Of a stretch of 64,000 nt of DNA, positions 3,310 to 56,639 are shown in pieces; within the stretch, counting starts at the first letter, position 1, and each line of letters begins with the position of its first letter. Both the position numbers and the translations under genes were made by a program. The DNA lies in IMG/VR virus record IMGVR_UViG_3300045988_074608, one strand, 5' to 3'. The notes beneath the pieces were generated by a model. It saw nothing but the letters and a program-made list of their open reading frames with translations, was not told where the DNA came from and searched no databases. The DNA comes from a virus.

Positions 3310-3342
3310 CAACAACTATCACTCCATTCAGGTATATTCAAC

Positions 3343-4026: not shown

Positions 4027-4033
4027 GTTAATT

Positions 4034-8387: not shown

Positions 8388-8481
8388 AAAATCGATAAAT
8401 CAGAACAATAACATTGTTGACTATACTCACGTAGCGTGAGTATAAGTCCCGACAATTCCTTGAGTCGGTTGGAAGAATAGG

Positions 8482-16353: not shown

Positions 16354-16413
16354 CAATGTTTTTAGGATAACATTATTATTTATTGTTACTATTTATTATT
16401 TTGTTGAGTTTGT

Positions 16414-31500: not shown

Positions 31501-34500
31501 CAATCATATCTAAATATTTAGGATTAATTCCGACATATGAAAACATAGCTTGAAATTGTCGTTTTTCTGTAGGTGATTGTATTGAATTAAGAACTTCATT
31601 AAACGATTCATAATCTGGATTATATTTAATTTTACCAGATATCTTATTTTGAAAATTATTTAAATCTTCTGCAATTTGATACTCGTCACTATCAATCTGT
31701 TTTTCATTACCAAATTCATCGTAATATGATGATAAATTTAAACGCTATTTTTGTAATTCTTGTAATTGTGCTTTTTGAGAACTTGTAAGCAAATTTGGTT
31801 TAAATTTACCATTAATCGTGCAAGACTTTTTAATAGCAGTTATTTGTGAATTTAAAGAATCTACTGCTTTTAATGTGATTGCAGATAATGTATCAATACG
31901 TTCAGCATAATATTCACGAGTGAATCGCCTATTTGCATATTTAGACATAAATTCATTCATGCCTCGCAAATAGTCTTTATATATAGAACGTAATCCAGGA
32001 GTGTTGATAGGTATATCTGGATTACCAAATTCGTCAACATCGAGTTTAAAATCTTTATCGTTTAACTCCTCTTTTATCAAGTCTTCTATATTCTTATAAG
32101 TATAGAAAATACGGTTATGTTTTTTATCATTATTTTTACGCTTTCCGTATAAAAGCCATGCTTTAAAATCTTCTAAATCAGTATAGAACTATCTCTTATT
32201 TATAGGTTGTATAAAATCTCCATTATATAAACCTCTCCTATCTTTCTACATGAGATATGTAAAAGGGTTTATCATAGAAGCTTTGCCTATTAAAGAATGT
32301 TCATGTAAAGCTTTATCATATTGTTCTTTTATACCGTCTATATCTTCCTCAGTTCTGCGATCAGTTTCTTGATTCATTTTATATATCTCGTCGATAACCA
32401 TTCTAACAACAGGACTTTTTGCATCAGAAAATAAACCACAAATACGTTCAAAAGAATTCGTATCTCCAAAATCATATTGTGCAGATACCCATTTTTTAAT
32501 ATTTACAGTTAATCGTTTTTTCATGTCATCCGTAAGCTCTGAAGATTCTTGAGATTCAATCTTCTCTTTAATCCAAAAATCAAGCATGTGTTCTTGTGCA
32601 ACACGTTTCATATTTTGAATATATGTAAGCTTTTTTCGTAAATCTAAATCTGAAATAAGACGGCTTATCTCGTCTATAACAGGATTAGAACCAGGTTGTA
32701 TTACAACCAGCATTCTTTCAATATTAGACAACAGATTATCATAGAAACCGCAAATATCTTTTGTTATATATTGAATCTCGTCAAAAGAAAAAGGCTGAGT
32801 TTGTTTAGTATTAGTAGCTGTAGCGGCAGTAATAGAATTACCATTTGTATCCTAATAAACTCTATTACCAAAATTATCAATATTATAATAAACCATATCA
32901 TAGTTATTATCTTTAGCATTGATAAGCATTGCTAATATATTATTGATATCTGTATCAGCACGCTCTACAAACTATAGTACACCTTCTGCAAAAGCAGTCA
33001 TAACTTCATCAGCACTCTTAGATTCAATTGCTTCAGCTATGGTCTAATGTTGCATCTAAACTTCACGAACAGCGTTCTGATTAAATGCAATCTGTTTTTC
33101 ATCACCATATATAGAAGATGTCTCTGAGAATTTAGATTTGTATGATTTATCTTTACTTAACGTTGAATTTTCTATACTTTCAAACAAATCCTATATTGTA
33201 CGTTCTTCTTTAGTTCTGATTTTATTTATTGAAAATCTCTAATCTTTTGCAGCTCGTATCTTTCTTCTAGCCTCTTTAAATCTATCTATATAAGATTGTT
33301 TATTAAACCATAACCTGTTAAATTGCCAATTATTGTCTATATTTTCTCCAAGTTCTAAACCAACTTGTTTACTATATGAAGCCTATACAAAAATATCTAC
33401 AAGTTCTTTATATGCTGTGTTGTCATATTGTATACCGATACTTTGTAAGTATCTACTTATGAGTCTAGATATAAAACTCTTAATCTTATCCAACCATGTT
33501 TGTTTAGTATCATACTGAACCTGTTTTAATTTGTTTATAAATTCATCGTTACTAAGTTCAGCAACCATTTCATAAACATTTTGTAAACCTTGTATAGATG
33601 GATCATTATTAAATTGTTCTTTGAGTTTAGATAGTAATTTTTCAGCTTTTGCGCGTAATATTTTAGATCTTTGCAACGCTTCAACAGTAATTACATGAAT
33701 CATTTCATGGGTTAATGTCTACACTAATGCATTTTTAAAATTATTCTCATTACCGAATGATTTTGCGACATTTATAATAATAGTTCTTGTATTAGAATCA
33801 TATTTAGCAGAATAATTACCAGTACGATCAGCAACTCGTCTAATATTGACACTATTGAACAAACCTGGACTTGTTTTATTAATGTCTTTTAATATTGAGA
33901 GGATAAATGAGAAATTATGATTATCCTCACCTCTTGTTTGTTTTATAATGTATTGTAGAAGATCTTGGGCAGTGTTTAAAGATTTCTTATTTAAAAACCG
34001 ATTTAAATTACCCATTGATTCATATTCTTTAGTTTTAATCTAAACTTCAAGTCTTGGATCTTTTTTACCAATACGTACTCCTGCATATTTAACTCTTAAT
34101 CCAGGATCCATATTTTCTATATACTATCTCCAAATATCTTCTTTAACTTTAGCCTTTAATGTAACTTCGAATCTTGTTTCATATGTATCATGTACGAGAT
34201 TATCTATTGCATATCCTTGGTCTTTAATGTACTTTACAGCACGTTCTCTACTATATAGATGACTATCTCTATCTTCACCATGTCTTTTGTATATATTATC
34301 GTTTATTCTAGAGAATGTTCCTACATTGTCTGTAGCAGATTTAATTTGATTAGGATTAATAGTCAATAATTCATAATACCCAAAAGTCTTATGATAAACC
34401 ATACCCCCATCATATTCTTTTGGAAGTTTATCATATTTATTTCCAGTTCCATAATCTGTTATATAAGCCCTTTCTTCTAAAGAAGGAGAATCTTTTCTAA

Positions 34501-34921
34501 ATAGATTTTTTATATTAAGAAATAACGATATTTTATCATTAGATGTACCAAAATATGGGTTTTCTAGATAATTCTATTCTTGAGTTTGTTTTTCAGATCT
34601 AAATAATATAGGTTCTCCATTTTCATCAAATACATCTTTATACTATTCTTGTATTTCAAATCCATCTTGAAACCATTTACCGTATGTATCTGTGAAATCA
34701 GATGTGAAAAGCTGAGCTTTTTTCTACTCAGCTTTATTTACATCTCCTTTATAATACTCTAATAAATCATTATAGAGTTTTGATGATTTTCCTTCTTTTG
34801 TTTTATCAAGAGTATAACCATTGTTACAACACAGAACAGCATAGGCTCTTTTATAAGAGCCTAATACTTCTGTTAAGTGATTTAATTCTTCTTCGTATTT
34901 ACTTTTTATTAAACATACCAT
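28595..34921 (-). CDS. giant late protein, 2,108 codons with TAG read as sense; contains an HExxH motif
   Basis: Twelve tracked fragments (28904..34921) share one frame and each ends on TAG. My hand scan of all gaps found no in-frame TAA/TGA. ATG at 34919-34921, TAA at 28595-28597. Confidence 0.7.
33695..33709 (-). other. HEMIH zinc-metallopeptidase-type motif
   Basis: ..TLTHEMIHVITVEAL.. spans the junction of fragments 33383-33703 and 33719-34015. Confidence 0.5.
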
Positions 34922-34930
34922 AATAATTTA

Positions 34931-37900
34931 TTATTTACATTGTTCATCTATTTCATCTGCTAATGTATCAAGAGCTTCGTTTGTAGGATAATCTTTTAAA
35001 GATTTCTCAATAAATTCCTATCTAGCTTCCAGATTCTATTTCAACTATTCAACAGTAATACCAACAGATTCTGCTAACTTAGTAAGTACAGACTAATCAT
35101 TAAATAATTTAAGCTAATTTTCATCTATAATGTGTTTTTCGCCATATAATGCTTTATTTATAGTACTTCCTATTTCAGCATTACCGTCCTCCGTGGTCAT
35201 CTTATACAAGAATTCCCCTAAATTATAACATTCGAATACGTTTGCAAAATCCTAGTTCTAACTATCTTTCTACATGATAGCTGGTATTTTTTTCAAAAGA
35301 TTAATTACGTTAAATACCGCTTTACTTTTAACAACCATTGATTTTTTAGACTTATCATAATATATTACATTTTTATCTATATCTTCATAAGACAAACCTT
35401 CATAATCATGAACAGCTTCTTTAAAATCATTTATTATTTCGGAAATAAACCCTTGCTTGAAATCAGAATACTTGATATATTGAGTGGTTTTGTCAGAATC
35501 TTCGCCTAATACATCCTCAGTCACAAATGAACTAATATTCTACATTATTATTTTTAGATCTTTTACAGAGACTCCTTTTATAGGTTTGCTATTATAGTAA
35601 TAATACTTTTTATTTACAGATTTCTATTCTGTTTTCTATAATCCAGAATCTGTAAACCTGTTTTTCTTCAGTGTTCCATCTTCATTATAATAATTTAACA
35701 TTTTATCACCATTATGGTGAGCATAACAATATACACAAGAAGATGCACAATTACTATTATATTTTAACAAATCGGTTTTTCCACCATAACAAGAACACAA
35801 CTATCTAAATCTATTATTCTCGGTTAGTTTATTAGGTATTTGTGTACCAAGCATTTTATTAATAGCATCTACACTTAAACAACCTTCTATACTTATACCA
35901 TCCATTCTACAAGGTTCTGCGCATGTTGACAAGTCTAAATTATATTTTTTAGCAATATTTAACATCTTTTCAGCTATACCTTTTATAACATCCATTCTGG
36001 CATGAGTAAAATAAAATCCGGAATCATTCTTATCGAAGTATTTAGAATAATCATATCCTAATTCTTCCATAAATTTAGAAGTGGTTTTATAATAATCTAA
36101 CACTGAAAATCTTACATGTTTTACACCTAATTCACTAGCTCGTTTCATCAATTTATCCACTTCAGATATTTTAGTAACGCCTGGTATAATAGGATCTATT
36201 CGTAATGTAACATATTCTGGATCTAATCCTTGTTTTATAAAGTCACCTATTCTCTCAATCATGTCTTGCCATTTCATAACACCAGGCTCCCATTTAGTAT
36301 TGCCTAAAGTAGTAACGCTGAAATGAATTATTTTAGGTTTGTTTATCTATAACAATTCTCTCATTGGTAAACCATCGTGTTTTGTTATCAAATATAATGC
36401 GTCTATATCCTCATATCGAATAGGGTTCTTACTATAATCTAAAAATGTATGATTTCCTTTAGCCCAATCTTGTATCATTTTTGAGAAGAATACTGGATCA
36501 GTGTGTTCTGACGCAACTGCAATTCTTGGTCTAGTATCATCTCCAGTAAACGGTTTTATAGCAAGTATTTCATCATTAGTTAATATTGTCTTATCGGAAT
36601 TCAACGTTTTAACTTGTTCCAAATAAGTTCCGAATCTATCCTCATCATTCGCATCTATACTATCCTGCGTATCTATACTGTTATCTGGTTCAATAACATA
36701 ACCTTCTTTTTCCTATAATCTAGTTCTTATTTTGGTTAATATATTTGCGAATCGTGATTCTCCTGTAGGTTCACCTTTTTCCATAATTTCATCAAGGATT
36801 TCTCCTTTTCGATTAATATGTGTGAATTTTACATTTCCTGTATTAATTAACAATTGTTTAGCTTCTTCATTTTCTACAAATGACTAATACATGAGAGCAG
36901 ACAATATACTGTTACTAACTTTTCTCCAGATATTTAACCCTTCGCCAAGATTAACACTAGCACCTTTAGCTTTTGCTATTTTAGGATCTTGTTCTGTTAT
37001 TATAGAATTAAATATTCTAATCTTATCATCAGTTGACAATGCAGTAGAATATAAAACCTTAATAGCCTAGAATGCATTTTCAACAGTATTCGCGGAATGT
37101 TTTACAATAGATTTAATCTTATCAATATCTTTAATATATGATAATTCCTCTCCAGACAATACATTAAATACATCTGTTATATGACGTGTTGCAAAGTTAG
37201 ACAACATTAGATTATCACCACGTTCATAATGTATATTTATAGAATCTTGTTTCTTATAAAGACCTTCGATGGCAGTTATAAATGCATTTGGAACTTTATT
37301 GTTATTAATCAGATCATCTTTTGTTATAAATCCAGACTGTCGTATTGCGTTTTCAATAGATCCTCTCTGTTTATTTACATAATCTATTACACTTTGTAAT
37401 TGTGTATCAAATGTCTATTGAGCAGATTGTACAGTTGGAACAATTTTATTACCCTGCTTATCAAATTTGTCAAAATACGTCTTATCGTAATCGTCATCTA
37501 TTTCACATGAATAGAATTGATATGTCTAAGAACCTATTTTCATACGTAAACCTTTTGGATTTACAATTTTATATATAGGGTATTCGAGACTAGTTCCATA
37601 TTGTGATATTGATCCGACTCCAACTAATTTATATAATAAAAATCTATCGTTATCTGCATATGTTGTACCATTTCTAAATGTTTTTATAAACGGTGGGAAT
37701 TGTCCATTTTTATTTTTAGATATAGGTGAAGAATATTTATTATTGTAATATGATAATCCTATTATTGTCCTAGGTTCTGTTCTTAATGTAACAGTACCAT
37801 CATATCCTACCTATTTATATGTAAAATTAGATGTTATAAATCTACTATAACCTTTTTCAGTCTTTGTATTAGTAGTCGGTATTATATTATTATCTGATGC

Positions 37901-40900
37901 AAAGTTTAATAACAACTCGTCTATGTTTATGCTATAATCTCTATTGGATTCAAGATTACCTTTATAATAATCAGAAGCTTCTTTTATATATTTACAATAT
38001 CCAAAATCTTTTCTCCACTGTAATGGTACATATTTAAAGAACTTAACAAATCCTTTACTGTCTGCAGAAGACATAAATGCATATATTGCCAAATCATTTG
38101 CAATACCTCGCATAGCTTCTTGTAGTTTAGGATTCTTATCGTTTGTATAATTAAGCATATCTTTCCAAGCTTCTATATAATCATTACTTACAGCTGAATC
38201 ATCTTCTGAAGTATATGTCATAGAAATTATATCATAATGAGGTTTACCTTCTTCTGCAAAATAATGTACAGAATGTAGTTTTTCGATAAGTGGATTTATT
38301 ATAGTTCCATTTTGAGTAAACTGTTTTAACTAACCAGACTCATCTGATCGTAACAATCTCTATAACATTGTTATACGTTTAGCTAACGTACGATTGCCAA
38401 CAATTAGTTGCTTCCAATACGAATATATCGTATGATTTGTACCGTGTTTTTTGTTATATTTATCAACATAATCCTAAAAAGCATAATTAAACGCTTTCTA
38501 TTTTATGTAACACATCATCGCATTATTAACTGCTGTTCTAGTAGCTTTAGATTTATTATTCAATATACTTAAAATCTCATCTCGTTGTTGTTCAAATGAT
38601 TTTTGCATATGAATCATCTAATCTCCCAAAACCATATGTATGAATTCTGTACCATAATAAGTTTTATCGTCAATATAAGAATCATTTAACATCTATTCAA
38701 TATTACTATTAAATAATGTACTCTATTTAAGATTATTATATTTCGCTAAATACTACTGCTAATCTTGATAATTTATACCTTGTTTCTTAGTATCAATTTT
38801 AGTATATTGTACAAGATCTGACAGACCCTGTGCATATTTCTCAAACTCTTTCGAAGCGATGTATATCATTTGTTGGATTTCAGATACTTTTATATTTTTA
38901 TCGCGAATCTTAATAGTTTTATCTAAATCTAAACTTGAAACAGAATTTCCAGCTTTCTTATAATAATTTCTATCCGTTGCGAGTATTTGTAAAATAGTCT
39001 TTTTTACTGTTTTACCATTTTCATTAACTTCTACTCTAAAACCATCATTGCGCATAGGGTCTCCAAATATATCTACAATAGTAGACATTACATCATGTGC
39101 AAGCTAATCTTTATCAGATAGAGAACCATTTGCATATATTGCAGCAATACTTTTTGTACCAAAAGTCTTATTTATATATTTTTTTTCAGCCTCTTCTTTT
39201 CTCTATTGTGGAGATAAACCTGGATTATCAACTATCTAACCATCGCATTCATTATAAATCTATGCTAAATCTCTAATCACAGGATTATTTAAGAAATAAA
39301 ATGCATGTCTACCAAAACCTAATCTTATTAACAATGAACTTATATTATAAGTAGCTTTATTGATATTCATTCTCAAAACATAAGGATCTTTAGCAACATC
39401 TACGTGACCATTGATAAGTGCTGATATCCAAGATAATATAAATGATCCATCACAGTCAACACTTCTTGCTAAAGATAAAGCTCCTAAATTACTTAATATT
39501 CCACCATCTGATATAAATCCAACATCATATAATTGTGTCAAGATATGGTTATTATTGTTCAAAGCGTAAGGTCCGATACCAGTTTTACCTGTTGCGAAAG
39601 AACCTCTTGTTTCTACCTAAGTACTAAGCATTTCAAATTGATATGGTTCGTATGGTTTTGCAACAACTCCACTCTCAAGTTCTTTCAATACATTTTTAAC
39701 AAGAGATGTATCCTAGTCAATAGATCTTCTTAAAAGATGTGCATATCTTCCACCTTGTAATTCACCATTTTTATCAAGTGTTCCACAATCCTTTAATAGT
39801 GATATATATGTACGTAAAAGATCATTAGTTAACTATTTCTTCTTATCGGAAAGATTTTCAGAAGTTGCTGTATAACGGGATTTTCTTCTAATCTGACCTT
39901 CTTTATCAATAAAATCAACATCGTGTTTTACAAGTTCGTAGAATAATGTAGACATGTATAATTTATCAATATCGAAGTCAGAACCTGTTTGAGCTGTAAA
40001 TTCTTTAGGTAAGACAATAGTATCTCTAACAATAGGTAATACATCTACAAATCGTAAAGCTCCAATTGAAGATGTAGCCTGTGTAGGAATACGATATGAC
40101 ATAGTATTGGCTTCAGCATTATGCCACTCAGTTTCTCCAGTTTTTACACCAGATATTATATCATTATCGATCAGCCATTGTTTAGCCTTTTTAAAGTTAT
40201 TCTACAATCCTTTTGGAATGATATCCATAAAATAGTCTATAGATACTACAGCATCCATTGAACCTTCTTCATTGATCATACGTAAAGGTTTTCCACCGTT
40301 CAGTTTACTTTCAATATTTTCAGAACTAATAACCTTATACGGACTATCCATTCCAAAAACAGTTCTCTGATAAAATGCATTACCTTTAGTACGAATATCG
40401 ATGACATCAGTTCCTACTTTAGATGACAATATACTTTCAACCCAAGCCATATTTGAAACGCTGTTCAAATCTACATTAAAACCATCTCCGGCTTCATTTA
40501 ATTCTAAAGCTTCTAATATATTTTCATCAGCATTTCTATCTCGTAACTACTGTACTAAAAATTGTTGTAGATTTTTAAAGTTTACAGTACCGTCCTAGTT
40601 TGTAAATTTATTTTTCAGTTCATCCCAACTAAGTTTAGCAATCTCACGCATCGTGGACATTATCTTATCACGAACCTCGTTTGCGGACATTTCTTTTACT
40701 GTACCATCTGATTGACGTATATTATAAGTATCACCATCACGTAATGTACCCATACAAACCTTTAAAACCTGTGTACCTGCAGCCATTATTTCATCTACAC
40801 GTGGATCTGTGTTCAACTGTCTACGAATCCATTTATATTTCTATGTATAAATATGACCTGCGAAAGAAAATTTATTTATATCTTCAGCAGACATGTCTGG

Positions 40901-43900
40901 GTCAAACCTCTAAGCTCCTTGAGAGCCTGCTTTTACAGCAGACTACATCATACACATATCAACTCCATTTTTAGGATCGTTCATCTTATCATAAAGATGT
41001 TTTAAGAATCCGTATGATATACCTTTGAATATTGGGAACAATGCAAACTTATTATAAAAATGGACAGGTGTTCCATTTTGCATTCTATAACCAAAAGCAG
41101 AATATTTCTAAGTAGATATAAGAGCATTGTGTACAATTTCATAAGCTTTTGCATCTGATAAATAACTATTATTTTTACCACGTAATATATCAAAAGCCTC
41201 TTTAACATTTTCTGTAAATGCACCGCGTTGTTTCAACAAGTTTTCAGCCATCTTGTCGGTTATGAAAGCAGTACCATCAGTAACATTAACACCTTCCAAA
41301 TGTTTAGAATCATCGTATACATAACTATTTGTTTCGGATTGAACTTTCTTATCGATGATTTCCAAAATACCAGCTTCTTTTAACAACTCTTTCTGTTTTT
41401 CAACATCCATGTTGTTTACAATCTTGTATATTTCAGCTTTTTCAGCTTTGGATATATCTCGACCTTCGTATTCTTGTTTACTTAATAGTATGTTAACACA
41501 AGCTTCTCTATATTCACCTCTTTGGAATACTGTTTTTAAAGAATTTACCATTTCACTGGTAATCTACCAGTCATTTATTTCCGCAATTCTATATTCACTA
41601 GGTATTCCAGGTATATCTTCTCTATTGTTAGATCCAGTAGAACCAACACCTCCATAACGTTTAGTTTCATCAACACCAAATGTTACAAGCTATCCTTTAT
41701 CATTGTAATTAGTCTTGAAGAATTGTGGCATTCCTGTTACAAATCTTCTACCCTCTTCCATAGACATTAACTGTTTGCACATTGTGTCAAATACATAAGC
41801 TACTATAGCCTAACCTTCTATTTCTGCTTCACTCTTTAATGAATTATAACGCCTCTCTGTATTACCTATTCTAGAATTTCTATATGCGTTGGCAATAAGT
41901 GCTATTTTATTAACATCTAAGTAGTTATTTTTGTAGTTGAAATATTTAGCATTTTCAGCAGCACTTGACGTATTTGTCTATACTTCTATAATACCAAGAT
42001 CTACAAGATGTTTTAACTCGTCGTCTAATCTATGTCTCAATATATCAGCCACTATTTTTCGTTTTTCCTCAATAGGTCGACTAAAATATTTTTCAACTGC
42101 TTTATTATAAGATTCGAGTATTCCGTTAGTTGGTGTACGATGTTTTTTTGCATCATCTGTAGATACATCATCTTGAAAATTGAATGATATGAAATTATCA
42201 CCTTCATAAATACCTGCCAATGATGTAAACCTTGCTCCGTTTTTACTACCTGTATGATAGTTTTTAATCATTTGTTCGGCAGGAAGTTTATCTTGCTCGC
42301 CATTTGGACCATAACCTAATTCACGAATAGTTTTCTCAACATTCCTACGTTCGCATTCGAAATACTCTATAAATTGATCTAATACATCGTTTTGTTGATA
42401 TCCTTTGCTTAAATCCTCTAAGTTAAAGAATATCTAACCTGTAAAATGATTAAACATAGGCAGTTTTCCAAATGCTGATATCTAATCATCAGTCATTTGA
42501 CTACTTACTTTAATATTATAGTCAAATCCTGGTAATTTAAATCCTCGTACAGACATGTATGTAGATTTATCAGACAATGTTGGCATTATTATAAGACCAT
42601 CAGATAGTTTCTACATTCTTGATATTTGATCTTCACGTTTTCCCATTTCTGAGAATTTAACGCTATCCGAACTATACTTAGATCCAGCATCGGTATCAAT
42701 AGATATTTCGTCTTTTACTTCTTTATTTAATAACTGCTTAGCTATAACAGATCCTCTTTTCTAACCGTCTTCATCTTCAAATACAACATACTCGACATCT
42801 TTCATATCATCCAAAATAGAACCTTTTCTAATCGAACCATCTGATTCAAAAGAAGTGTTCAAATCATCTACAACATCTGATACTGTATTGTTTTGAGCAT
42901 ACATATACATTTTAGTATTTCCAGCACCCAATGTCATCATTTCTGATGTTGCCATTTTATATTCAGATGTTGCTTCTGCAAGCATTGTTATAAATTGATT
43001 TTTAGCATATAAGAACGCTCCTGAATATTTACCGTCTTTATTAGAATCTCTTGTAAATACATTTAAATCACCTGATTTTACAGCATTATTTAATTTGTCA
43101 AGAACTCCGTCTTTTGATATAAGTGCATATATACTAACACCTCCACTTTTACTACTTGTCATCATTTCACGTAATGATTCTATATAATCAGTACTGTCTG
43201 GATTTAATTTGTGCAGTAAATGATAAAATGCAGGTTTTGTAATCATTACACCTATAGAATTAAATGCGTTAATTATATTACTAACAATGAAATCAAAATT
43301 AGCAACATCATTTATATCATATATTTTACCATTTATATCAATCTTAGTACTATCTCCAATTAAACCTTTTCTTATTTGATTCAATGTTGTAGCACAATCT
43401 GCAAATGTCGTATAATTTCTGTTTATATTGTCATCTTTATTATATAATCCGGTCAAACCAGACCTTACATAATCAAACCATGCGATTGGATATTGTCTAG
43501 AACTCTAATTAGTATTTGTCTATCTATATCTATATTCGTATCCTTTTTTATTACCTTCTGATTCATTTATAAACAAGAAGTTAAAGTTAAGTTTTTGTGA
43601 TTTAATACTCTAAAACAATAACGTAGTAAGTGTCTAATTGTTCTGATTCTATGCGTAAGTAGCACCTTGTAATATATCACCTGCTTTACATATAACTTTT
43701 CCGTTTTTACCAACAAGGTCTTTAACAAGACGTACTTCAGTAGGATACATAGCTTGTTCACTTCTATCTTCTGTATTACTTATATAATACTCTGGTTTTA
43801 CAATAGCTCCATGATAATATACTTTTGGAAAACCTGCATATTTTTCATATTGTTTTTCTGTAAAACGTAGATAAGATTGATAACGTAATCTATACAAAGA

Positions 43901-46900
43901 TTGGGCTATTCTTTCGAACATGTAATCGTTTTCTCCAAGTCTCCTTAATTGATTATATAAATCAGATACATTTTTAACATCGTGTAATTCTGATAACAAT
44001 CTCTGATGTACTGATTTGAAAGATAAAAATACAGGTCTACCCATAGAGTTTACTGTCTAAGGTATTGTTGCACGTTTTGGCTTACCATTTTCTTTGACAA
44101 CTTTTCCATCTTTATCTAAAACGTACATACTTTTAACTACACCAGATGCTACATCTTCTTGTGTTACATATCTAAGATTAGGTATAGTACTCAACATCCA
44201 TTGTATAGGAGCTGCAACATCATCAGACATAGAATGAGAATAGAATTCGTCTGCGTGTCCTTGAATATCATCAGAAACAGCACTTGTTATATCACTATCA
44301 AGATCTTCTTTTCTTTGCGCGTCTCTGTCTTTTCTTTTGCGAATACCCATCTATTGCAATTTAGATTCCAATAATGGTTGAGCTATCTACCAATTCTAGA
44401 ATAATTCACGTATAATTAATGCATTATCTCGTGTCAATGCAGGTAATTTACCATCTTGTACAAGTTTATCAAGTTGTTCTTTTGTAGCAGAACCTCCTGT
44501 AATCTAAACATACCATTTAGCAAATGGTGAATCTTTTGCTAAAAGTGTCTATCTATCAAATTTAAGCTTTTCTATATTATTACCGAGAATATCAATACCT
44601 TGTTTTTGAACAATTACTGGTAATAATGTTTCAACAACTTCATTTAATTGTTTCTAAGTATATATGTATTGTAATTGATGATCTTTACCTTCATTGTCCT
44701 ATATTGTCATGTTAAGACCTTTTGGGAACAATCTGTTAAAACGTTCCATATTTTCTTTCGAAGCTTTACGAGAAGAGAATTTACCGTGATCTATTGCTCT
44801 AAACGTACATGCCATCTTAAGATTACGTGTTCTTATAAAAGCGTTCAATGTATTATACAACCAAGCAAACATTCTTAATATTTTATTTTTAGGTTGCCAG
44901 TTGTATTTAGAATATGCATAGAACATATCAGCAAGACCTTCAGCAATCTACTCTTCTGATAAATCTTTATTTTTACGCTTTTTCTTATACCAATTATAAA
45001 GAACGTTTCTTTCTTCTTCACTCATTAACATTTCAACAACGTAGTGAAATGATTCATGATATTGTGCATTATTTTCAGCTTCGTACGATAATTTAATAGC
45101 GGCACTCATACAACGTCCAACAACATCACCATGCTATGTTTTTTCTATAATATCTTTTACTGGAAGTATTTTAACACTGTCTCCGCATATTCTACGCACA
45201 TCTTCTGTCGCTTTTTTCAGCCCTTCTTCATCTTTTATAGGATGTTTAGCTTTTTCACGTTGTACCATATTCCAACCGTCATCACCAAACATATCATCTT
45301 GAGCAGATAACATATCATCAATAGATACATCTTGACCATCTATGTCATCTAATACAGTTTCATCAGATTGAGGTGTTTCAGGTTGCGTGTTTATCCAATC
45401 ATCGATTGCAGTTTGCATTTGGGCAGATTGTTCTATAATTGCACTAGGTGTTGTATCATCTACAGAAATAGCTTCAAAATCAGATGTACTTACCAAAGCA
45501 TCGGTTATTCCAGAATATTCTGACTAGAACCAATTATTTTTAATCATCCACGCAATACCACTTATGTTATTTTCAACATCGTCTCTTGTTATTACGAATT
45601 CATCTGAATATCTGATAGATTGTACATTTGGGTTTTTATCAAACCATTCTTTAACACCATTAAACAATCTACTAACCTTTGAATTTTTAAAGTTATCACG
45701 TATTAATAATGTATTCTGCACATTCAAATATCCATTTGTTGACAATTCCTGACGAAGTTTTTGCAAATCCTGATCATTTTTAAGATTATATATTGTTTTA
45801 GTGTTACCTCCATCGTAACTCATATATACTTTATTACGATCAAGATTACCATCTTCATCTTTTACATAATCAAATTGGAATTTACTGTCTGTTGCGACAG
45901 CTCCACCTCCGAATCTTATAAGATAATGTAACAATTTAGAATTATCTATAGGACCTTGTATTTGATTGCCATCTTGGTCAATTACATTAGCTTTTGATTG
46001 TTTCTTTCCTGATATATTTGTTAGAATATCAACAATAAGATCTGCTGCAGATTGTGACATTTTACCAGGTGTCAATGCTATTAATGCTGTATGAGGTACA
46101 GCACCCTGTTCAGAATCTTCAGCGTAATCCAATGGTTTCTGAATATATACAATACCTGGTCTTGACAAATTCTCATCATTTACAGCTTCTCGTTGAGATG
46201 TTCCAGATCCAACCTTATAATCATCACTATCTAATCGTCTTAAAGTACCCTATGAATCCGATATCAATAACATTGGTTCCCCGTTTTTATAATCTAACAA
46301 ACCATTTATCTAATCGTCTGTTAAATCCAAACGTTCTTTTACATTGCCAGGTTTATTATTATACTGATATTTACCATTTGTCCTACTAAGTCCTTTTAAT
46401 ACAACTTTTATTTTTCCAGATTTTATATCATCTTTATTCTTTTGATAAAAATCTATAAGTTTATTTCTAAAATCTTGTTCAACTGCGTATATAAAAGATA
46501 TTTCTGCAGTAGCTTCTTTTGAAAGAATTTGTCCATTATATGATATTTCTTTAAATTTCAAATATGCACCACATGTAGCAGCAGTATCTGAAAATTTTGA
46601 AGCTTCAAAATCTATTACAAATTGTACATTTTTAATAAAATCTTTTTTAGTAGTCCAATCTTTAAATACTTGTAATGCTTTCCTTTGTGCAGGAGTTATT
46701 TGACTTCTATCTTTAGCAAGTCTGTTATAATGTTTTACATATTTATTATTATATACTCTAGGATTTGGATGAAATTTACCTTGACCAGGACCATTACCTT
46801 TGTTAGTTTTATCTGCTAAATGTTGTTCTACAATTGTTTTAAATCTTGTCAAAATATTTTTTTCTCCTTCTACCCATTCTAAAGCTTGTTTAAGAACAGA

Positions 46901-49900
46901 TAATGTATTATATCGATCGATATTTTGTTCGAATTTAGTTACAGCATCGATGTGTGCATTATATTGTTGACTAATTGTTGCATCTTTAACATTCTACATT
47001 AATGTATCAAGAGCATCTAATTGATGTTTTAATTGTGCAAAACTTAGTTTTACATTTTCTCTAGCTTCATCTATTTGCTGTTGTATATCATGTAATTGTT
47101 CAACATATGTAGTATGTACATATTTAGGGTCCTATATTGCCAAATCGACCATTTGTATAGGTTGTACGTCAGTTATAGCAAGCAATTCACTCCAGTTATC
47201 ACGTGGACTTTTAGTAGTTACGGTAATACCCATTAATTGTAAATTACAAACGCTACTACCAGTACATTCCTAAATCATTTGTGCATATGCATTTAACTAA
47301 TTTGTATATACTTCTCTAGCAGTGTGTTGTTGACGTCTTCCGAATGCTGAGGTTTTACCATAATCCTTATCAAGAGCCTCTCTTTTCTTTTCTGTCTAAA
47401 TATTTCCTCCAACAGTACCACTAACTATTACATCTTGTAATTCAAATGAGTATTTAGATGTTTTAAAATCTATAAGAGTTATATTACCATCTGGCGCTAT
47501 TGCTAAAAGGTCAGGTTCACCAGCTATTTTAACTTTAGTTCCATCTGGATTAGTTTTTTCATAATATAAACAAGTTGGTCTTGTATATAAAACATAACCC
47601 AAAGTCTCCATTTTATCCTTGAATTTCTTAAGATCATCTACGAGTTTATCAAAAACTTCTTCAGGAATTCTTTGATCCACATCTTCATAATTCAAGGTTT
47701 TACCTGCTAATATATCACGAGCTATTCCATCTATTATAGAACCAGATATTACAGAAGCACCAGGTAAGAATAAATTTGTATCCGTATGTGCAAATAATTT
47801 AGCGATAGAATTTATAGTTTCATCGCTCTTTAATATATCGTCAGTTTGAAAATAACCCTCAGGATTTATCTTACATCTCTCTGCTAATTCTGAATCAGTA
47901 CCATATAAACGAACAGCTGTATTATAATAATCATCAGCCATTTGATTTATGGCTTTTATGTATTCATTTTTGTAACCTTCTATAACATTTGTACTATCAT
48001 TCCTCTTAATAGAATCTAACCATGCATCTCTTAGTTTTTGTAATGTATTGGTATTTTTCTTTATAGCATCTTCCTATTCTTTTGTATTACGGAACTGAGG
48101 TTCCATCATACTATGAAGACGACTATACATTTCAATCCTACCATTTGTTTCAATGAAATAGTTATTTCCTGTACGCCATTCGTAATGATATTTACTATTA
48201 GACGCAGAATATTCATCTAATACTTTTATAGTTTTAGATTGATCTTGTGTTATTACAACATTACCATATTTTATATTAGTTTCTGGCGCAACATACGGAG
48301 TTTTAGGCTGTTGTGCAGGTTGCACAGGTTGTACTATAGGTTTTGCAGGAGTTGGATTTAATAACTTCTTATAATACCTTGCATAATTATACTCACTTAT
48401 TGTTATTTCCTAATCATTTAAGAAATATTTAAACTTACCATTTTTCTATTTTCTTTTTTCTAATTTTGCACCGTTATTTAACAAATTGACGATTCGCATT
48501 TCTTTAGTACGATAACCATCATCACTTATAGCTCCAAGATTAGTTACTAACTAATCAAATTTCTTTTGATTATATTTTCTGCTATTTGCATAATCCGCTA
48601 ATCTCTAAATAGAACCTTTATAATCAGATGTTAAACCAGGAGCCTTAGCTGCAGCACTTTCATAAGATTCTCTATCCATCCATTCTTTTTGAAAATCTTC
48701 GAAAAGCTTCATACTAGAACTTCTATAATTATCAAGTCTATTACGTTCTTCGTCAGTAAGTTTATCAAGTTCAGAATCGTTTAATGCTACATAATCATCG
48801 TATTGATCTTTTGTCTTTTTCAAACTTTTACCACGATCATCATATTCATTTCTAGAATCAAACCATTCTGCCTTATCAAACTATTTGTTAGTTTTGATTA
48901 ATTTATCATTTTCAGAATCATACTCATAAACTCTACGTATACCATCTATGTCATCACGTACAACATATGTCTTACCATTTCTAGTATACGTATTATTATC
49001 ATCGGTTATTACTGCAGAATCTAATTTCTGTCTATCTAACTCGTCGTTATAGAAATCATCTTCAACACTCTGACGTAACAATTCATCTTCTTTTTTATTT
49101 TTCAAATATGCTTCAACAGAACTCTTAGCAAATTTTGGATCTTTTACTAATTTGTTAAGCATTTCATTATTGAATTGTAACTGTATCGAAGCATCAGAAA
49201 GATCGCGTTCTGCTGCAACATAATCATCGTCTATATGGAATCCTTTGCTTTCTGCAAACTTTTTCACATCTTCTTCGGTGTCTAATGCAATGTTATCACC
49301 ATATACCTCGTGAATACGATCTTTGGTTTTTTGGACGTCATAATCAACTTTAGCTTTTACAGATTTTCCACCTTTCAACTCTTTGATTTTTTGCATATCA
49401 TTCAACAATTGTTGAGTCTACATTTTACCAATAAGTTGATGTATTGTTATAAGATTACTATTATTTGCTTCATAAGCACGCTGTAAATCATCAAACATGT
49501 TTACAAACTTAGCATCATCTTTATATTTATCTGCAAGTTTATATCTACCGTCTTCCCCTTTTTCTATTTTAAACTGTAACTAATTTATTCTAGGATCACT
49601 TGCTCTATTTGCATCTAAGTAATCTTCAAATGACTATGTTACATTTAAACCGATAAGATTATTTAATTTTTCTTTATAAAATTGATCAGCTTCTGCAATA
49701 GAATTTTGTCTACCTGCTAATACTGCAATGTATGTATCAAAGTTTTTCTACATCACAGAACGTTCATTTGTCTTCTTTATAGAAAGATTATCTTTTATTT
49801 TCTATTTCCATGATTTATTTTCATCTTTCTCTAAAAATCCAGCACTTGTTGCGGTTTTACGTACATCTTCATTTTGTTGTAATATTCCGACTGTATTTAC

Positions 49901-52765
49901 AAGTTTTCTAAGGTTAGCAACATGATCCGACGGTATTCCATAACTAATATTATCTTTATTACGCTCTTTCATATCAGATGTGATACCTTCGTACTAATCT
50001 AACATCGCTTTAATTTTAGAATAATTACCTTTACGTAATTCTTTAGCAAATATAGACGCTTTCGCAAGATAATCTTTATCTGAAATATCGTCAGCTAATA
50101 AATTATTTAATATAAGATGATCGAGTTTAAACTGTTGATATGTATTAGCTGCACCTCGTACAGCTATATTAGGACCACCTTGTATCAAAGCTCCTAAAAT
50201 ACCACCATGCATTTGTTCCCATATATCACGTTCTTGTGCTGTAGCTTGTTCAGGATCTTTAAATAGAAAACTAGACCATAATTTAGCACCATCCAATACG
50301 GTCATAGGAAGCTGATTTAAAACATTATAATAAGCATTAGACATCTCTTCTACACGCTCATATTGTTGTTGTTGCTGTAAACCTTCTTCAGCACCTTCGG
50401 AATACATACTTGCTCCAGCTCTCCATCCGAAATCTTTAGCAACCTTACCAGCAGTACCTAAATATCTTCTATATCGTAATACTCTTTCTGGTATAGCAGT
50501 AGCCATATCTATAACATTTGCAGAATGCTGCAATGATTTTTCTGCCATTTTTGCTAAAGCTTTGTCTATTTTACCTTGTGCAAAATTTCCTACTTTTTGC
50601 ATCAAGACAGGTATTCCAGATTCTTCTATAAGATCTTTTGTAATACCTCTTACAAAATTAGCAGGTGCATTTAAAGTTGTTCTAATACCATTTACAGCAT
50701 TTGTAACAGCTGCATCTCCACCTTCTGATAATAATTGTTGAACTGCCTTTCTAAGCGATGTTTTACTACCATCTGCATATTTGCGTAAAGCCATTTTAAA
50801 CGCTAACCTGTCTCCTTTTGCAGCTAATTTATCAGTTAGAAATCCAACCTTAGAATTTTTCGCAATACCTCCCATAGGCATACAAGACACAATAGCATCT
50901 GTTAAAGAATCAAGAGTATTAACACCCATTCCTTGATAATATTGTTTTGCAGAACCTGCGGTAGCATCTAATAAAGTCTGTCTTATTTTAAAATCATTTG
51001 GAACATATTTACCGATATAGAAAGCATGTAATATATCATCAACAGTAGCACCTTCTCCAAGCTCTTTTCTACCTTCGTTTACAAATTTATCAAATTGATC
51101 ATTTTCAATAAGAAGTTTTTTAGCTAATACATCTGTAGCATCTGATACGTTTGCAAAGTTCTCATCTGCTCCAGCAGCCATAGAAGATGCAAAAGAAACA
51201 GCTCCAGATGCAAGTGCTATAGAAGCACCTGCAGTTTCAGGTGCTAATATTGAACCGAGTAAAGCTGTAGCACCGGCTCCCATTGAAATTAAAGTTTTCT
51301 CTGGAGAAGACATTGATGAAGCGAGAAGACTTGGTGCCATCCACATTTTTGCAGGATTATACCATGCTAATGAATTAGCAGCAGCTTCTCGTTTTCTATA
51401 ATAATTCGAAACTTCATATCCTTTTTGATATTTCTCCAAATCTTTTTTATCAATCTCATAATCATTTCGCCACAAAGCTTTCATTTGTTCAGCTCTACTA
51501 TTGAATTGTTTATATATATTATCCAACTATGTACGAGCTTGTTTTGCTGCAGCAACATCTCCTTTCTCAAGAGCCGCTTTATACTTTGTGATATTTGCAC
51601 CAAATCCATGTAGTTTTGAACCAACGCCAGTTCCGAAATCCAAATATCCAATATCGTGTAACAAAGACTGTGCATCAGAAACTAAATCTCCAGCCCACGT
51701 ATGATTTTCAAAAGATATTAAATCTTTAAATACGTTTTCTTGTTTTTCTTTCTTTTGTTGGAGTTGATTTATTTTTTCTTTAAGATTGTCCCAATTAAGA
51801 CTCTCTTCCTTACTGATACCTTTTCCGCTAACATAACGATTTCTAATATCTTCAAACTATGCCTAAGTATTTTTAAGTTCAGTTACAGTTTTTTGATATT
51901 CATCTAATGCTTCTGGATTTACCATGTTTTGTTGCTACATTAATGTATTCATTTTACCAAGACTTGTAGCCATCTAGGTTTCGTTTTTAGAAATACCAAA
52001 AACATGATATGCATCTTGCAACAAAGAATTTTTTCTATTTTTATCGATATTATCTGCAATTTTTTTACCACTCCATAATAAAAAAGGAGCTGCTATCGGA
52101 TTCTAAATACTTTGTAATACAGCATTAGCTATAGGTAACATGCTATCATAATAACCTTTTGGAGCTGTATCACCATCGTCCTATTTAAAATCCTCTGGAT
52201 GCATTGTTTGATACCAACGTACTGTTTTATCAATTTCGTAATCCAATGCTTTTGCCTAACTTCTCAATTGAGCAGCTGCTTTAGGATTAGATTTTTCAAT
52301 ACTTGTAGCTGCGTCATTATAAGAATCTCTATCTTCCATAAGTCTTCGTACTCTACTTCTGGAAGCTCTTTTATCTAAATTTTTATTTTGTTCCCGTTGT
52401 CTATTTTCAGCATCTCTCTGTTCTTTTGTGAACACTTTTCTTCCAGGAAAAGACCATTTATATTTAGATAGATTCGGATTTTGTGGTATCAGAGAAGTAA
52501 AATCGGTATTATTATTTTGCTGATTGTTATTCTGCCGATTATTATCCTACTAATCATTTGTATCTGATGACAATTCTTTATTTTTACGATCAGCATCTCT
52601 TTTCAAACGTTCGTTTAATTGTCTCTCAGCTTCTTCATCTTCTCTCTGTTTTCTTAAAATATCCTATCTTTTTCGCTCTTCTGATTTTCTCAGACGCTCC
52701 ATATATTTCGCACGTTCGTCATCACGAACTCGGTACGAACCTCTTATTAAGCTATTTATATCCAT
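34931..52765 (-). CDS. giant multidomain virion-type protein with RNA polymerase motif, 5,944 codons with TAG read as sense
   Basis: About 30 tracked fragments from 35270 to 51526 share one frame and all end on TAG. A codon-by-codon hand scan of the gaps found about 96 in-frame TAG and no TAA/TGA. ATG at 52763-52765 lies 2 nt after the upstream stop. The ORF ends on TAA TAA (34928-34933). Confidence 0.7.
35726..35749 (-). other. CxxxCxxC cluster of a DUF1848-like (radical-SAM-like) module
   Basis: ..NCASSCVYCYAHH.. lies downstream of ..ASEHTDPVFF...TLRIDPIIPGV... (36622-35801). Confidence 0.45.
39965..39979 (-). other. DFDID metal-binding motif of crAss-type virion RNA polymerase
   Basis: ..AQTGSDFDIDKLYM.. 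I verified the codons GAC TTC GAT ATT GAT on the - strand. Confidence 0.65.
47462..47512 (-). other. PD-(D/E)XK nuclease core inside the giant ORF
   Basis: ..GEPDLLAIAPDGNITLIDFKTSK.. (D...D-x-K). Confidence 0.5.
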
Positions 52766-52767: not shown

Positions 52768-54531
52768 TTAATATATCATTGATGCCGACCCCTTGTCGGT
52801 TGTTTTAATATGATAACTATCTCTCAGATTAGCTTCTTGATAATCTATATTAGGTGCATAAGCTCCACTTGTAACATATGTATTACGGTCAGCCTTACCG
52901 TCTTTAGCTGCAATAGATGTATAATTAAACGGCATATAAACTGTACCAACGTTCACAGCTCTATTGTTTTCATCTCTTACATACAATGTTCCCACTGTAG
53001 CTTGTACAACTTGTCCATTTCGTTTAACAGTTGTTGCAACATTATTACCTGTTCTAGGTACAAATACAAGGTGTCTATTAGCTCCAAGAACTCTATCAGA
53101 CTTACCATGTTCATTCAATTTTCTACTTATATCTCTATGTAATGGAATATGTCTTTGCATTATATGATGTGAACCACTTGTTTCTGCTGCCCATCTATCA
53201 CCATCTATTAATCTAGACGCCTCTTGTTTACTAATAGTAAATCCATCTACTATTGAAGTTTTAATAACATCTTTATCACTACTTTTTCCTACTTTTGCCA
53301 CCACATTTAATTTATATTTTCCAGCATCTCCAGCTTTTCTTTGATGTCCAAATCGTTTATAAGTAACTTCAAACGGTTCACCGTGTGTGATTGTAGCACC
53401 TTGTACTTTTGCAGAATATATTTTCGATTGTTTACTATCTTTTATTGTTTTTCCAGTATATGGTATTTTACTAACGGTTTTCTCTAATACTTTTTTAGCT
53501 TCTGATGTAGCTTCTGCGAATGGTAATAATAAACCATTAGCTTTGTATTCATCGATATTTAATCCAATCAAAGCACCCAAACCTCTTAATAATTGCGTCT
53601 AATGATAATTGAGATTAATATCTTGTTTTTCTTTTGCAGCAGCTTTCTAACTTTCATATTGTTGTGCTTGCTTTTGTTTAGCCATATCATGCTGGAATCT
53701 TATATTTTCAAGAGCATATTCATTAACCTTCTTCTCTTCTCTAAGATAATCACTGTTTCTATTTACAATATCATCTGTAAGATACTGCATGGCTAATTTA
53801 TCAATATCTGCTTCAGAAGCTTGCGGGTTCACAGCTCTTACTTTATCTTTAGCTTGCGAATAATAATATTTACCGTAATCACTACTTAAGAAATCATTAA
53901 TATTACTTTTAAGCACGCCACGTATATCATTTTCGTCAACTGTGTAATAATCATAACCGTCTTTTTTCTAATTGGTTAATTTCTCATTGAACTTTTTATC
54001 AAGATGTTTAAACCAATCATCTGTTAGATCATGCAAATTTTTATATTCTATAGGCGATACTCTATCAAACAAACCATTTTTTAATGTATCCCAATCTTTA
54101 AATTTATGTTTCTGAAAGAAATCTTCCATCTACTAACTGTATAAACCCTTAGACTGTAACTGTGCCATTGCTTGAAGATAAGCTTGTCCTGTTTTCGATG
54201 ATTGTATAATTTGATTTATTTTATCTCTAGGTGTAGTTCTTATAACTTTAGCTATCATGGCACGACCCTCTGCTGTTCGCAGAGGATCTATACCCATTGC
54301 TTCCATGTTATCTATCGCATCATTTAATCTACCATATGTTAACTTATCATAATTTTCAACATCTTGTTGAAAAGGAGATGTAAAATCACTGTATTTAGAC
54401 AGATATTCATCCATTCTTTTTTCTCCAGATTCATACTGATCTTTTACAGCATTTAAATAAGCATTCATAATACCAGTATCATATAGCTCTGGGATAGGCA
54501 TATCTACTGGCTAATCATATCTATATATCAT
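52768..54531 (-). CDS. late structural/ejected protein, 587 codons with TAG as sense
   Basis: Fragments 52768-53580, 53647-53916 and 54133-54501 share a frame and join across TAGs, including TAG TAG at 54130-54135. ATG at 54529-54531, TAA at 52768-52770. Confidence 0.6.
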
Positions 54532-54536
54532 AATAA

Positions 54537-56639
54537 TTATTGTTTATACGGATTAATAAATGGAATTGGTTGAGGAATATTTACTAATGATTTAGCTAAA
54601 TCCATAAAGTTCGGCTAGAATGGTTTATACGGATTTATAAACGTTACGTTTTGAGGAACATGTACCAACTATTTAGCAAGATCCGTAAGATATTTTTCAT
54701 TTGGCATAGATACAGGTGGATTACTAAACAATCTATTAATTCGATTTTTACGTCCTGCTTTACTCATTAAATCTTTACGTTTTATATCTAAATCATCTTG
54801 ATATAATTTAACAGTATCACGCCATCTACTATCATCTACGCGTTTCTTATCCCATCTGTAGATATTCTCCATAAAGTCTTTTCTAGCTTGGTTAGCCATT
54901 GCCAATTTAGCAGCATGTGCTTTTTCAAACGCATCTTGATCGTATCTCATAGCATTTGTTCTATTCTCTCTATCAGCTTCACCTGCACGCATTAAAGCGT
55001 CGTAATATTGCTGCTTATATTTATTATTCTACTCGTCAGCTATTCCATAAAGCTTTGCAACATTATTTATATAACTATTATAAAGATCATTTCTAGCAAT
55101 ATATTTCTAACCTGCAGTAAGACCTCCTGTTTGGTCTATATTATATTTATTCTATCTAAGACTATCTCTATACTCTTTAAGTTGAGGATATATATTATAT
55201 CTAAGACCAGCTAAACCATTTAATGCTCTATTAGCGTATTGGTTTTGACTATATGTATTATACTTAGGAATACTTTGTTTATTGATATTTGACAATCTAG
55301 AAAGTGCTTCTGTAACTCCTAAAAGTGATGGAAGTCCAATCTGAAGTTCATTCTACCAATCTTTACCAATTGCATATTGTCTTCTGTAATTATTCATTTG
55401 TCCTTCTATATTATGTTGTTTTGCCTATTGTTGTGCGAGATCTTTGAGCTTATTAAAAGATTCTTGTTTTGACTGTTGTATATTTTTATTATACAAATCA
55501 CTTGTAGCTTTAGATAAAGAACTCAATTTACCATATCGTCCAACTTTGTTCTAAGCTTCATTCATACTTTGAATCTGCATAGTATACGGTGCAGCTTGCC
55601 TTGCGAACGTATCACCAGTTCTCCAATCAATATCATTACCAAGTATTACATTACTATCATCTTCTCTTACAGACGATGGTTGGTTATCAACACCAACTGT
55701 ACCTTTGTCAACAATAGTTGCACTACTATTATTAAAATCTATAATAGATTCTCCTTTACCAACATTACTTTCGTGTGGTCCATTTATAACACCGTATGGA
55801 GAATATACTTGTTTATAATTACCTTCGGATTTACCATTATTATAACACTTAGAATCTTTTCCTCTATTAGCTACTAATATTCCACCTTTAGTATTTCCAT
55901 AATCCTACAAATAATCCTATTGTAATCCTGTGGTTTGAGCACCTGCTTTATTAAACGTAGTGATAGCGTTTGCTTTCTGTTGTGCAACAGCCATTCTGTG
56001 TTTTAGAATTCTTTTCTTACGTCTAGCAGCAGCTCCTCCAAATATACCTCCTATAAGAGATCCTACAGCAGCTCCAATACCGGATCCAATTGGACCACCT
56101 ATCATACCTATCGCAGCACCTGCTCCAGCACCACTTCCAATAGATTTCATTGTATTTCCAGATGTTTGTGCTTTAAGGTTTGCAAGTTCTGCATCTTCAT
56201 CAATACCATTTTGAATATCATAACCAATTCCATTTATCATACCTTGTGAGGTACCTGCGTTCGATAACAGTTGTGACTAATTTGCAACAGGTTGTTTATA
56301 AGCATCTATAAGATTTCCTGCAAAAGCAATTCCTTGCTGAACCATTGCACCATAGTTAGCGTTTTTAAGATTTGTTTTAAAAGCACTAGGACCTTTTGGA
56401 CCTTTTTCTTGAGGACCTTGAGGACCTTGTGGAGTTTGTTGAACTGGTGTTTGTGAATAAGAATTGTTGTTATATGCATTTTTCCAATCCCAACCACTAT
56501 TTATTTCATCTCTAATATCTTTCAACTATCCCCACTGCGGTGGTTTAGGTGGTATATAACCTTGTGATGAATTATCATCTACACCGAATACAAAATTTGG
56601 TTTCTAATTACGTATATATTTAAAAGCTGTTAAATCCAT
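54537..56639 (-). CDS. late protein with glycine-zipper hydrophobic segment, 700 codons with TAG as sense
   Basis: Fragments 54669-54992, 55917-56240 and 56277-56525 share a frame. The gap scan found TAG only. ATG at 56637-56639, TAA at 54537-54539. Contains GSGAGAGAAIGMIGGPIGSGIGAAVGSLIGGIFGGAAA. Confidence 0.6.

Follow-up and report, generated by a model that had tools for sequence, protein, structure and literature searches.

A 5,944-codon gene of a gut crAss-like phage that probably encodes a fused virion RNA polymerase with TAG read as glutamine

A 64,000-nucleotide (nt) stretch of viral DNA (IMG/VR record IMGVR_UViG_3300045988_074608), referred to here as the window, carries on its minus strand a single reading frame that runs from an ATG at position 52765 to a TAA at position 34931. 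This frame is one continuous, real gene of a gut crAss-like phage. It is best explained as the late-expressed virion RNA polymerase (RNAP) gene of a phage of the Suoliviridae (the delta group, Oafivirinae-like) that reads TAG as glutamine (Gln) in its late genes, and the probability of this explanation is put at about 0.82. A first-pass annotation, made from the letters of the DNA, had described the frame as a fusion of modules that are encoded separately in other phages. That description is right and it is not new, the giant fused RNAP gene being an already known hallmark of this phage family; the less-described details of the gene are a swappable C-terminal cassette, a terminal cysteine and an embedded zincin motif.

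The reverse complement of 34931–52765 measures 17,835 nt and holds 5,944 sense codons followed by the stop. Read in frame it contains 96 TAG codons, no TGA, and one TAA, which is the terminal one. From the base composition about 401 TAA or TGA codons would be expected in 5,943 codons (log10 of the probability of finding none ≈ −180), and on that strand the other frames contain 303 and 763 of them. The initiating ATG lies 2 nt beyond the TAA of the upstream gene, and the closest in-frame TAA (52807) is 14 codons before it. The first-pass annotation had drawn the same frame with TAG as sense and had named an in-frame TAA or TGA as grounds for abandoning it; the codon count bears out the frame, no such internal codon is present, and all of the motif coordinates given at that stage are correct. 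Its proposal of one translational unit is further supported by collinear homologues. The relative P0052 aligns with the window protein in one collinear high-scoring segment pair (HSP) at 50% identity (amino acids (aa) 1–5155), and the standard-code relatives cr118_1 and cr50_1 possess uninterrupted open reading frames (ORFs) of 4,946 and 4,774 aa with no TAG. In some searches the proxies P0045, P0012 and P0052 stood in for the window protein. Searches for repeats inside the giant, and for a domain common to the giant and the downstream protein, found none. The gene and its parts, from the N terminus onwards, are as follows.

34931..52765, minus strand: the giant gene, 5,944 sense codons plus TAA, 96 TAG read as Gln, with collinear homologues
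51506..52765, minus strand: charged low-complexity N terminus, aa 1–420, by its K/D/E/R fraction
51146..51466, minus strand: Ala/Gly-rich, moderately hydrophobic segment, aa 434–540, by composition, inside a TAG-free block
47216..48160, minus strand: PD-(D/E)XK-like nuclease domain, aa 1536–1850, with D1752, D1766-x-K1768 and QLNAY
44666..45268, minus strand: zincin-like segment (candidate), aa 2500–2700, with YHESFH at aa 2569–2574 (45044–45061) and an invariant E2609
37496..44272, minus strand: gp66-like virion RNAP body, aa 2832–5090, by blastp to phi14:2 gp66 and by match to PDB 6VR4_A
39965..39979, minus strand: catalytic DFDID motif, aa 4263–4267, aligned to gp66 1361-DFDID-1365
36698..37213, minus strand: NADAR-like domain, aa 5185–5356, below the Pfam NADAR cut-off, matching phrog_1017
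35720..36433, minus strand: DUF1848 domain, aa 5445–5682, by Pfam, with a Cys cluster that includes CASSCVYC
34934..35047, minus strand: conserved C-terminal tail, aa 5907–5944, ending …DEIDEQCK, by identity to P0052 and Cys count

The alignments show aa ~2830–5090 of the giant to be homologous to gp66 of phage phi14:2, an experimentally characterised two-barrel RNAP (PDB 6VR4), and a two-barrel fold is predicted for the window polymerase from sequence homology only. By blastp, gp66 aa 956–1669 align with window aa 3824–4512 (E 6e-18), with the string TGSDFDIDK identical and the motifs YRIP.Q..SS and VD.AKDPY conserved, and a second HSP pairs gp66 175–335 with window 2832–2973 (E 2e-4) and spans the cleft-blocking region. 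Homology extends over both DPBB domains, the connector (1095–1238), the bridge helix (1529–1559) and the trigger loop (1598–1636) of gp66. The window motif has the form DFDxD with Ile or Val at its fourth position, and mutation of each Asp of the gp66 DFDID abolishes activity (preprint 10.1101/2020.03.07.982082). When a 393-aa core query was compared with the PDB, 6VR4_A was the sole match (E 4e-15), and the likeness of this motif to the catalytic DxDxD of gp66, which the first-pass annotation had put forward, is confirmed. The polymerase body is 25–32% identical to 50 Crassvirales records; PHROGs returned no match for the polymerase, and in a word-indexed protein search the polymerase core and the nuclease/zincin region had a single match each.

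The same motif is the site of an insertion in a relative, L011 1-13345 (ENA ERZ27279261 k141_83425), whose identity to aa 4266–5356 of the window protein is 52%. There the giant gene is split at DFDID by a LAGLIDADG_2 ORF, the lengths being 4,284 aa, 262 aa and, from window residue 4266, 1,114 aa. This arrangement suggests that a homing endonuclease or an intron has inserted into the catalytic site.

Sequence comparisons place the phage itself in the Suoliviridae ("delta" group), close to the Oafivirinae. The window DNA polymerase (PolB) shares 61–68% identity with its counterparts in Dulem virus 42, cr131_1, cr130_1, cr272_1 and cr273_1, and five genes that include the neighbours of the giant are homologous to and syntenic with cr130_1 gp76–gp80 (Suoliviridae; Oafivirinae). 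Megablast of the ORF against phage records gave no match, and the phage collection holds no near-identical DNA; a metagenomic fragment of 2.8 kb with ~90% identity exists.

One of the closest known systems is gp79 of cr130_1 (Chuhaivirus simiae, Suoliviridae/Oafivirinae; YP_010113266.1), together with the giants of cr113_1, cr115_1, cr118_1 and cr50_1. Like the window, these RefSeq genomes have three late genes, the giant and a gp65-like gene in that order, converging on the replication module; TAG is recoded in three of the five, YHExxH precedes DFDxD as in the window, and there is a Cys close to the C terminus. The DNA polymerase of the cr130_1 group is 65% identical to that of the window. 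The RefSeq giants differ from the window protein in that identity in the polymerase body is 25–32% and their N-terminal 2,000 aa can hardly be aligned; the window giant, with its NADAR-like and DUF1848 domains, is slightly longer at 5,944 aa, and the cassettes of cr118_1, cr50_1 and cr130_1 are different.

In better characterised phages the parts of the giant are encoded apart. Phage phi14:2 has gp67 (1,797 aa), gp66 (the RNAP, 2,180 aa) and gp65 (1,421 aa) in that order, all separate. In cr85_1, a crAss001-like member of the Steigviridae, the nuclease/zincin protein gp056 (2,518 aa), the RNAP gp053 (2,401 aa) and the gp65-like gp054 are separate genes on opposite strands; these three represent the crAss001-type cargo proteins gp47, gp49 and gp50. 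The alignments show that window aa 1–~2700 are a homologue of cr85_1 gp056, the "RNAP-associated" cargo protein (~2,500 aa) that the Steigviridae encode separately. This protein shares PD-(D/E)XK-like and YHEAFH segments with the N-terminal half of the giant, and gp053 shares its polymerase core. Given these separate homologues, the window giant can be described as a gp056-like protein joined to an RNAP and a cassette. By homology, the gp65-like cargo protein lies outside the fusion and stays separate as the 2,108-aa downstream gene. Phage phi14:2 resembles the window in the identical TGSDFDIDK, the setting in a late/structural block, the …ECK end of gp66 and the gp65 homologue immediately downstream; it differs in its standard code and in a gp66 that lacks an accessory cassette, and its gp67 has no detectable similarity to the N-terminal half of the window protein.

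The claim that cargo protein and RNAP are separate in phi14:2 and crAss001-like phages and fused here thus stands, while the accompanying remark that the gene is unusually large does not hold for its clade. The fusion is family-wide in the Suoliviridae, where RefSeq lists single coding sequences of 4,328 (cr113_1), 4,493 (cr115_1), 4,774 (cr50_1, no TAG), 4,946 (cr118_1, no TAG) and 5,801 aa (cr130_1, 74 TAG) from four subfamilies, and the window gene shares collinear homology and gene order with these family members. An exhaustive HMMER search with a 47%-identical core proxy returned 1,153 cluster representatives; among the best 150 of these, 113 were at least 4,000 aa long, 57 at least 5,000 aa and 11 at least 5,900 aa, the largest reaching 6,939 aa, and such fusions are common in metagenomes. 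A Crassvirales review gives an RNAP gene of "up to ~6000 aa" as a hallmark, and the idea of a "single huge polyprotein" that is likely cleaved is already present in the Drobysheva preprint.

The comparisons indicate that TAG is decoded as Gln throughout the late-gene block at 28.6–64 kb. With TAG as sense, this minus-strand half becomes eight back-to-back long ORFs, with an even TAG share of 1.0–2.0% of codons in all eight. On the plus strand, the replication block (1–28.5 kb) fits the standard code and its ORFs have no internal TAG; GC skew switches sign at ~28 kb, the meeting point of the converging modules. In the L011 gene (52% identical), CAA or CAG stands opposite 9 of the 21 window TAG sites that face no other TAG. 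In the two standard-code relatives Gln is the residue most enriched opposite window TAGs (3.6-fold, P = 4.5e-4), its frequency being 11.5% there versus 15.7% opposite window CAA/CAG. In these features, TAGs restricted to late genes and standing opposite Gln in related genes, the window agrees with code-15 late-gene recoding. TAG = Gln has been published for the Suoliviridae (PMC7886860; PMC10136315), with mass-spectrometric support in a phage of the family (cited in PMC10136315).

Five plus-strand ORFs (window 1-28700) end in TAG, and each has a back-up TAA or TGA 5–11 codons further on; such stops would keep read-through short when TAG suppression sets in late in infection. The only tRNAs in the window, tRNA-Gln(TTG) at 3239-3310 (+) and tRNA-Leu(TAA) at 16270-16354 (+), are in the early module. 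In cr130_1 the same tRNA-Gln(TTG) and tRNA-Leu(TAA) lie side by side, and a suppressor tRNA(CUA) is not found there either.

The N-terminal half begins with a charged region (K/D/E/R fraction 0.37 over aa 1–250) for which no family match was found over aa 1–420 in Pfam or PHROGs. It is followed by an Ala/Gly-rich stretch, the A+G fraction being 0.24 in aa 501–750 versus ~0.10 elsewhere. The segment aa 434–540 is weakly conserved (29% identity to cr130_1 aa 387–495; also present in P0046) and might have a membrane or channel role. Both regions are present as the first-pass annotation had described them, together with a TAG-free block of 510 codons (codons 414–923), but the lack of TAG is marginal (P≈2e-4 for 24 Gln-type codons, chosen post hoc) and is not kept in cr130_1, whose counterpart of the block contains TAG. 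The block was also considered as a separate standard-code gene, a candidate ruled out by the marginal statistics, the lack of conservation in cr130_1 and the homology that runs through it. PHROGs gave no match for the N-terminal half.

The nuclease core, D1752…D1766-F-K1768, corresponds to 47462–47512, and its region aligns with cr85_1 gp056 aa 1604–1857 (blastp 1e-13). Columns with the patterns E-x-D, D-x-K and Q-x3-Y are invariant in the window protein, P0046 and cr85_1 gp056, as expected of a PD-(D/E)XK core, and Pfam PDDEXK_1 is the top match in all three, which together support the core that had been proposed at this position. A PDB profile search of the region returned nothing significant (NucS alone at E 0.64). 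The presence of a PDDEXK domain in large transcription-block proteins had already been noted by Yutin et al. Further along, a Y-H-E-x-x-H motif followed ~39 residues downstream by Glu (E2609) is invariant in 76 homologous segments, the arrangement of an HExxH-plus-Glu metallopeptidase-type site. The segment was detected in 112 of 119 giants and also in the separate gp056 of cr85_1. In a predicted model the HExxH would lie in one helix and the Glu in the following helix, after a small sheet, and the matches of this model in BFVD are crAss-like giants only.

The C-terminal end consists of an accessory cassette of ~750 aa (aa 5155–5906) with the NADAR-like domain and DUF1848 with its Fe–S-type cysteines, and of the conserved tail. 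The DUF1848-like module that had been proposed near the C terminus is borne out by a clear Pfam match (PF08902, E 1e-23, 85 bits versus a cut-off of 30.5) and by seven Cys columns that are invariant in 26 DUF1848 homologues and are all present in the window, three of them in CASSCVYC, which has CX3CX2C spacing, and four elsewhere. A model of a 60%-identical proxy predicts a β/α barrel (mean pLDDT 66). DUF1848 as a clear radical-SAM enzyme was considered and set aside, the structural support for it being weak (TM ≤ 0.39). The NADAR-like region matches phrog_1017 (E 4.6e-12), and related fragments score 51–61 bits for NADAR.

P0052 has no cassette and passes from the polymerase body directly into the tail (window 5907–5944 with P0052 5141–5176, 63% identity), which makes the NADAR/DUF1848 block an insertion between body and tail. 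At the same position cr118_1 and cr50_1 have an SF1 helicase, and cr130_1 has a NADAR-like domain with DUF7831, annotated as DprA-like. Metagenomic fragments have mixes of DUF1848, NADAR, DUF7831, UvrD/SF1 helicase, DprA, cpYpsA, HD and ART-PolyVal in this place. A literature search for NADAR or DUF1848 in crAss-like polymerases found none.

As to the tail, a Cys is found in the last 8 residues of 100 of 113 related giants, versus 2.3% by chance (Cys = 0.29% of residues). A C-terminal Cys is also seen in phi14:2 gp66 (…ECK) and gp67 (…TIC) and in cr85_1 gp053 (…TIC) and gp056 (…KCIAF), and the gp65-like proteins have no Cys near the C terminus.

The course of events that would follow from this organization is proposed by analogy with phi14:2 and crAss001. 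The giant would be made late and, because its first in-frame TAG is codon 34, it would not be completed before TAG suppression. It would then be packaged and, at infection, leave the capsid before the DNA or together with it, after which its polymerase part would transcribe the early, standard-code genes. The crAss001 proteins gp47, gp49 and gp50 have been found in virions by mass spectrometry (MS; PMC10172136), and the phi14:2 homologues are packaged in the virion according to MS/MS-based annotation. For gp66 of phi14:2, Mg-dependent RNA synthesis is known as well. Like those of the injected "polyvalent" proteins, the accessory enzyme domains may have nucleic acids of host or phage as their targets at entry, and, more speculatively, the cassette enzymes might act on nucleic acids or on ADP-ribosylation at that time. 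The most speculative step is that the giant would be cut into functional pieces by its own zincin-like domain or by that of the gp65-like neighbour.

Polyvalent proteins, as described by Iyer et al. (2017; PMC5512222), are very long single polypeptides that combine many enzymatic domains and are believed to accompany the DNA into the cell. The giants are like them in the shuffling of domains between close relatives and in their ART-PolyVal, helicase, nuclease and metallopeptidase-type modules, and the window giant likewise joins several unrelated enzymatic domains in one polypeptide that are shuffled among its relatives. It is unlike them in having a polymerase as its core with accessory domains as appendages; NADAR and DUF1848 go unmentioned in that paper, and its passages on RNA polymerases that were examined do not deal with a two-barrel core.

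Several observations weigh against this explanation or parts of it. Neither the 64-kb window nor five partial relatives yielded a suppressor tRNA with a CUA anticodon. The Pfam PDDEXK_1 match (E 2.3e-4, 21.6 bits) falls 0.4 bits below the cut-off of 22, and that of NADAR (PF08719; E 2.5e-5, 25 bits) falls below a cut-off of 35.1, for which reason the domain is named NADAR-like only. For the zincin-like segment, Pfam gave no peptidase match, a PDB profile search gave nothing significant (the best peptidase was FtsH, E 2.6), and neither did Foldseek of its model against the PDB (best E 0.7; PprI 3.1); the assignment is a candidate one, made on motif conservation. Foldseek of the DUF1848 model gave, among many TIM-barrel matches, weak ones to spore photoproduct lyase (TM 0.25–0.39), with amidohydrolase-type barrels ranking higher. 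Finally, packaging, ejection, activity and cleavage are putative for the window protein and argued from homologues.

Processing is the point on which an alternative has to be taken most seriously. The giant may remain one unprocessed ejection protein of ~680 kDa in which the RNAP and accessory enzymes are tethered, in the manner of the three-domain, 3,500-aa virion RNAP of phage N4 (Schitoviridae). The latter is ~3,500 aa long, packaged in the capsid, ejected, and transcribes early genes, according to PMC13434306; it has a T7-like single-subunit fold rather than a two-barrel one (PMC5512222, its reference 36), and is an analogue, not a homologue. This possibility, which is less likely than not, would agree with the failure of the PDB profile and Foldseek searches on the zincin-like segment to demonstrate a protease fold or a cleavage site, with a fusion kept across >100 sequence clusters, and with a Cys tail that stays at the very end whatever precedes it, as would suit a single packaged unit. 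Set against these is the invariant HExxH…E, which lies shortly before the point where two halves meet that other families encode as separate proteins. In its crystal structure, moreover, gp66 is self-inhibited, and the authors of that structure regard proteolytic activation and the cleavage of fused forms as likely. The tail channel of crAss001 is narrower than 50 Å, and the cargo has to unfold in part on its way through (PMC10172136).

A second alternative, that the internal TAGs act in part as stops and yield several shorter products such as the 511-aa TAG-free block, is improbable. In its favour, the standard code splits 34931–52765 into ORFs of at most 511 aa, no suppressor tRNA is visible in the window, and recoding does not always go together with suppressor tRNAs (PMC10136315). 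Yet homology to standard-code giants crosses the TAG positions, Gln codons stand opposite TAGs in relatives, and the TAGs are evenly spread without associated start contexts. They interrupt the catalytic core itself every ~40–120 codons, and the TAG-free block is not conserved in cr130_1. A third alternative, an assembly chimera or decaying pseudogene, has as its only grounds the extreme length and uncultured source of the frame; it can be dismissed given zero internal TAA/TGA against ~400 expected, collinear homologues in independent assemblies and in RefSeq, and catalytic and conserved motifs that are all intact.

Retaining the explanation of the giant as a late-expressed virion RNAP gene, its neighbours in the late block are the following.

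52768..61774, minus strand: three upstream late genes of ~592, 705 and 1,715 aa, in synteny with cr130_1 gp78, gp77 and gp76
28595..34921, minus strand: downstream cargo gene, 2,108 aa, 31 TAG, homologue of phi14:2 gp65 and cr130_1 gp80

The upstream genes match cr130_1 gp78, gp77 and gp76 by blastp at 2e-37, 4e-60 and 2e-42. The downstream gp65-like protein has a THEMIH motif (aa 405–409) with a weak SprT-like match. Its aa ~54-215 share 29% identity (E 1.8e-11) with the domain in which cr85_1 gp056 ends, a bona fide ART-PolyVal, and a direct Pfam match of its N terminus to ART-PolyVal is weak (E 0.018). What resembles this gp056 domain in the window is the N terminus of the downstream protein, and on this likeness a putative ADP-ribosyltransferase-like domain would adjoin the NADAR-like domain in the cargo set.

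Two further observations concern the plus-strand half. At 8264-8439 (+), between two plus-strand ORFs of the standard-code module, there is a match to Rfam RF04321 "permuted tmRNA" (62 bits versus a gathering score of 47) in which the T-arm-like part aligns well and the mRNA-like part poorly; ARAGORN made no call. A region of ~2 kb in the replication module, 12980-15028 (+), has no plus-strand ORF of at least 90 aa under the standard code and no ORF of at least 150 aa on either strand under either code, and no Rfam family matched it at the gathering threshold.

Taken together, the less-described details allow a proposal that is doubtful as it stands. The cassette would be a swappable payload slot with which the Suoliviridae co-inject counter-defence or DNA-repair enzymes along with the genome, and in this phage it could cooperate with the ADP-ribosyltransferase-like domain of the neighbour; the HExxH…E segment would release the pieces once ejected; and the terminal Cys would belong to a packaging or anchoring signal common to crAss-like RNAPs and gp67/gp50-type cargo.

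With standard-code gene callers the giant would fall into about 97 pieces, which again shows that code 15 is needed for such genomes. A cassette slot that differs between close relatives, an HExxH…E motif at the junction and a near-universal C-terminal Cys bear on the packing, ejection, activation and possible cleavage of crAss-like cargo, and leave the identity of the gene unchanged: as a rather divergent member, it joins the giant fused polymerase genes that define the delta-group crAss-like phages.

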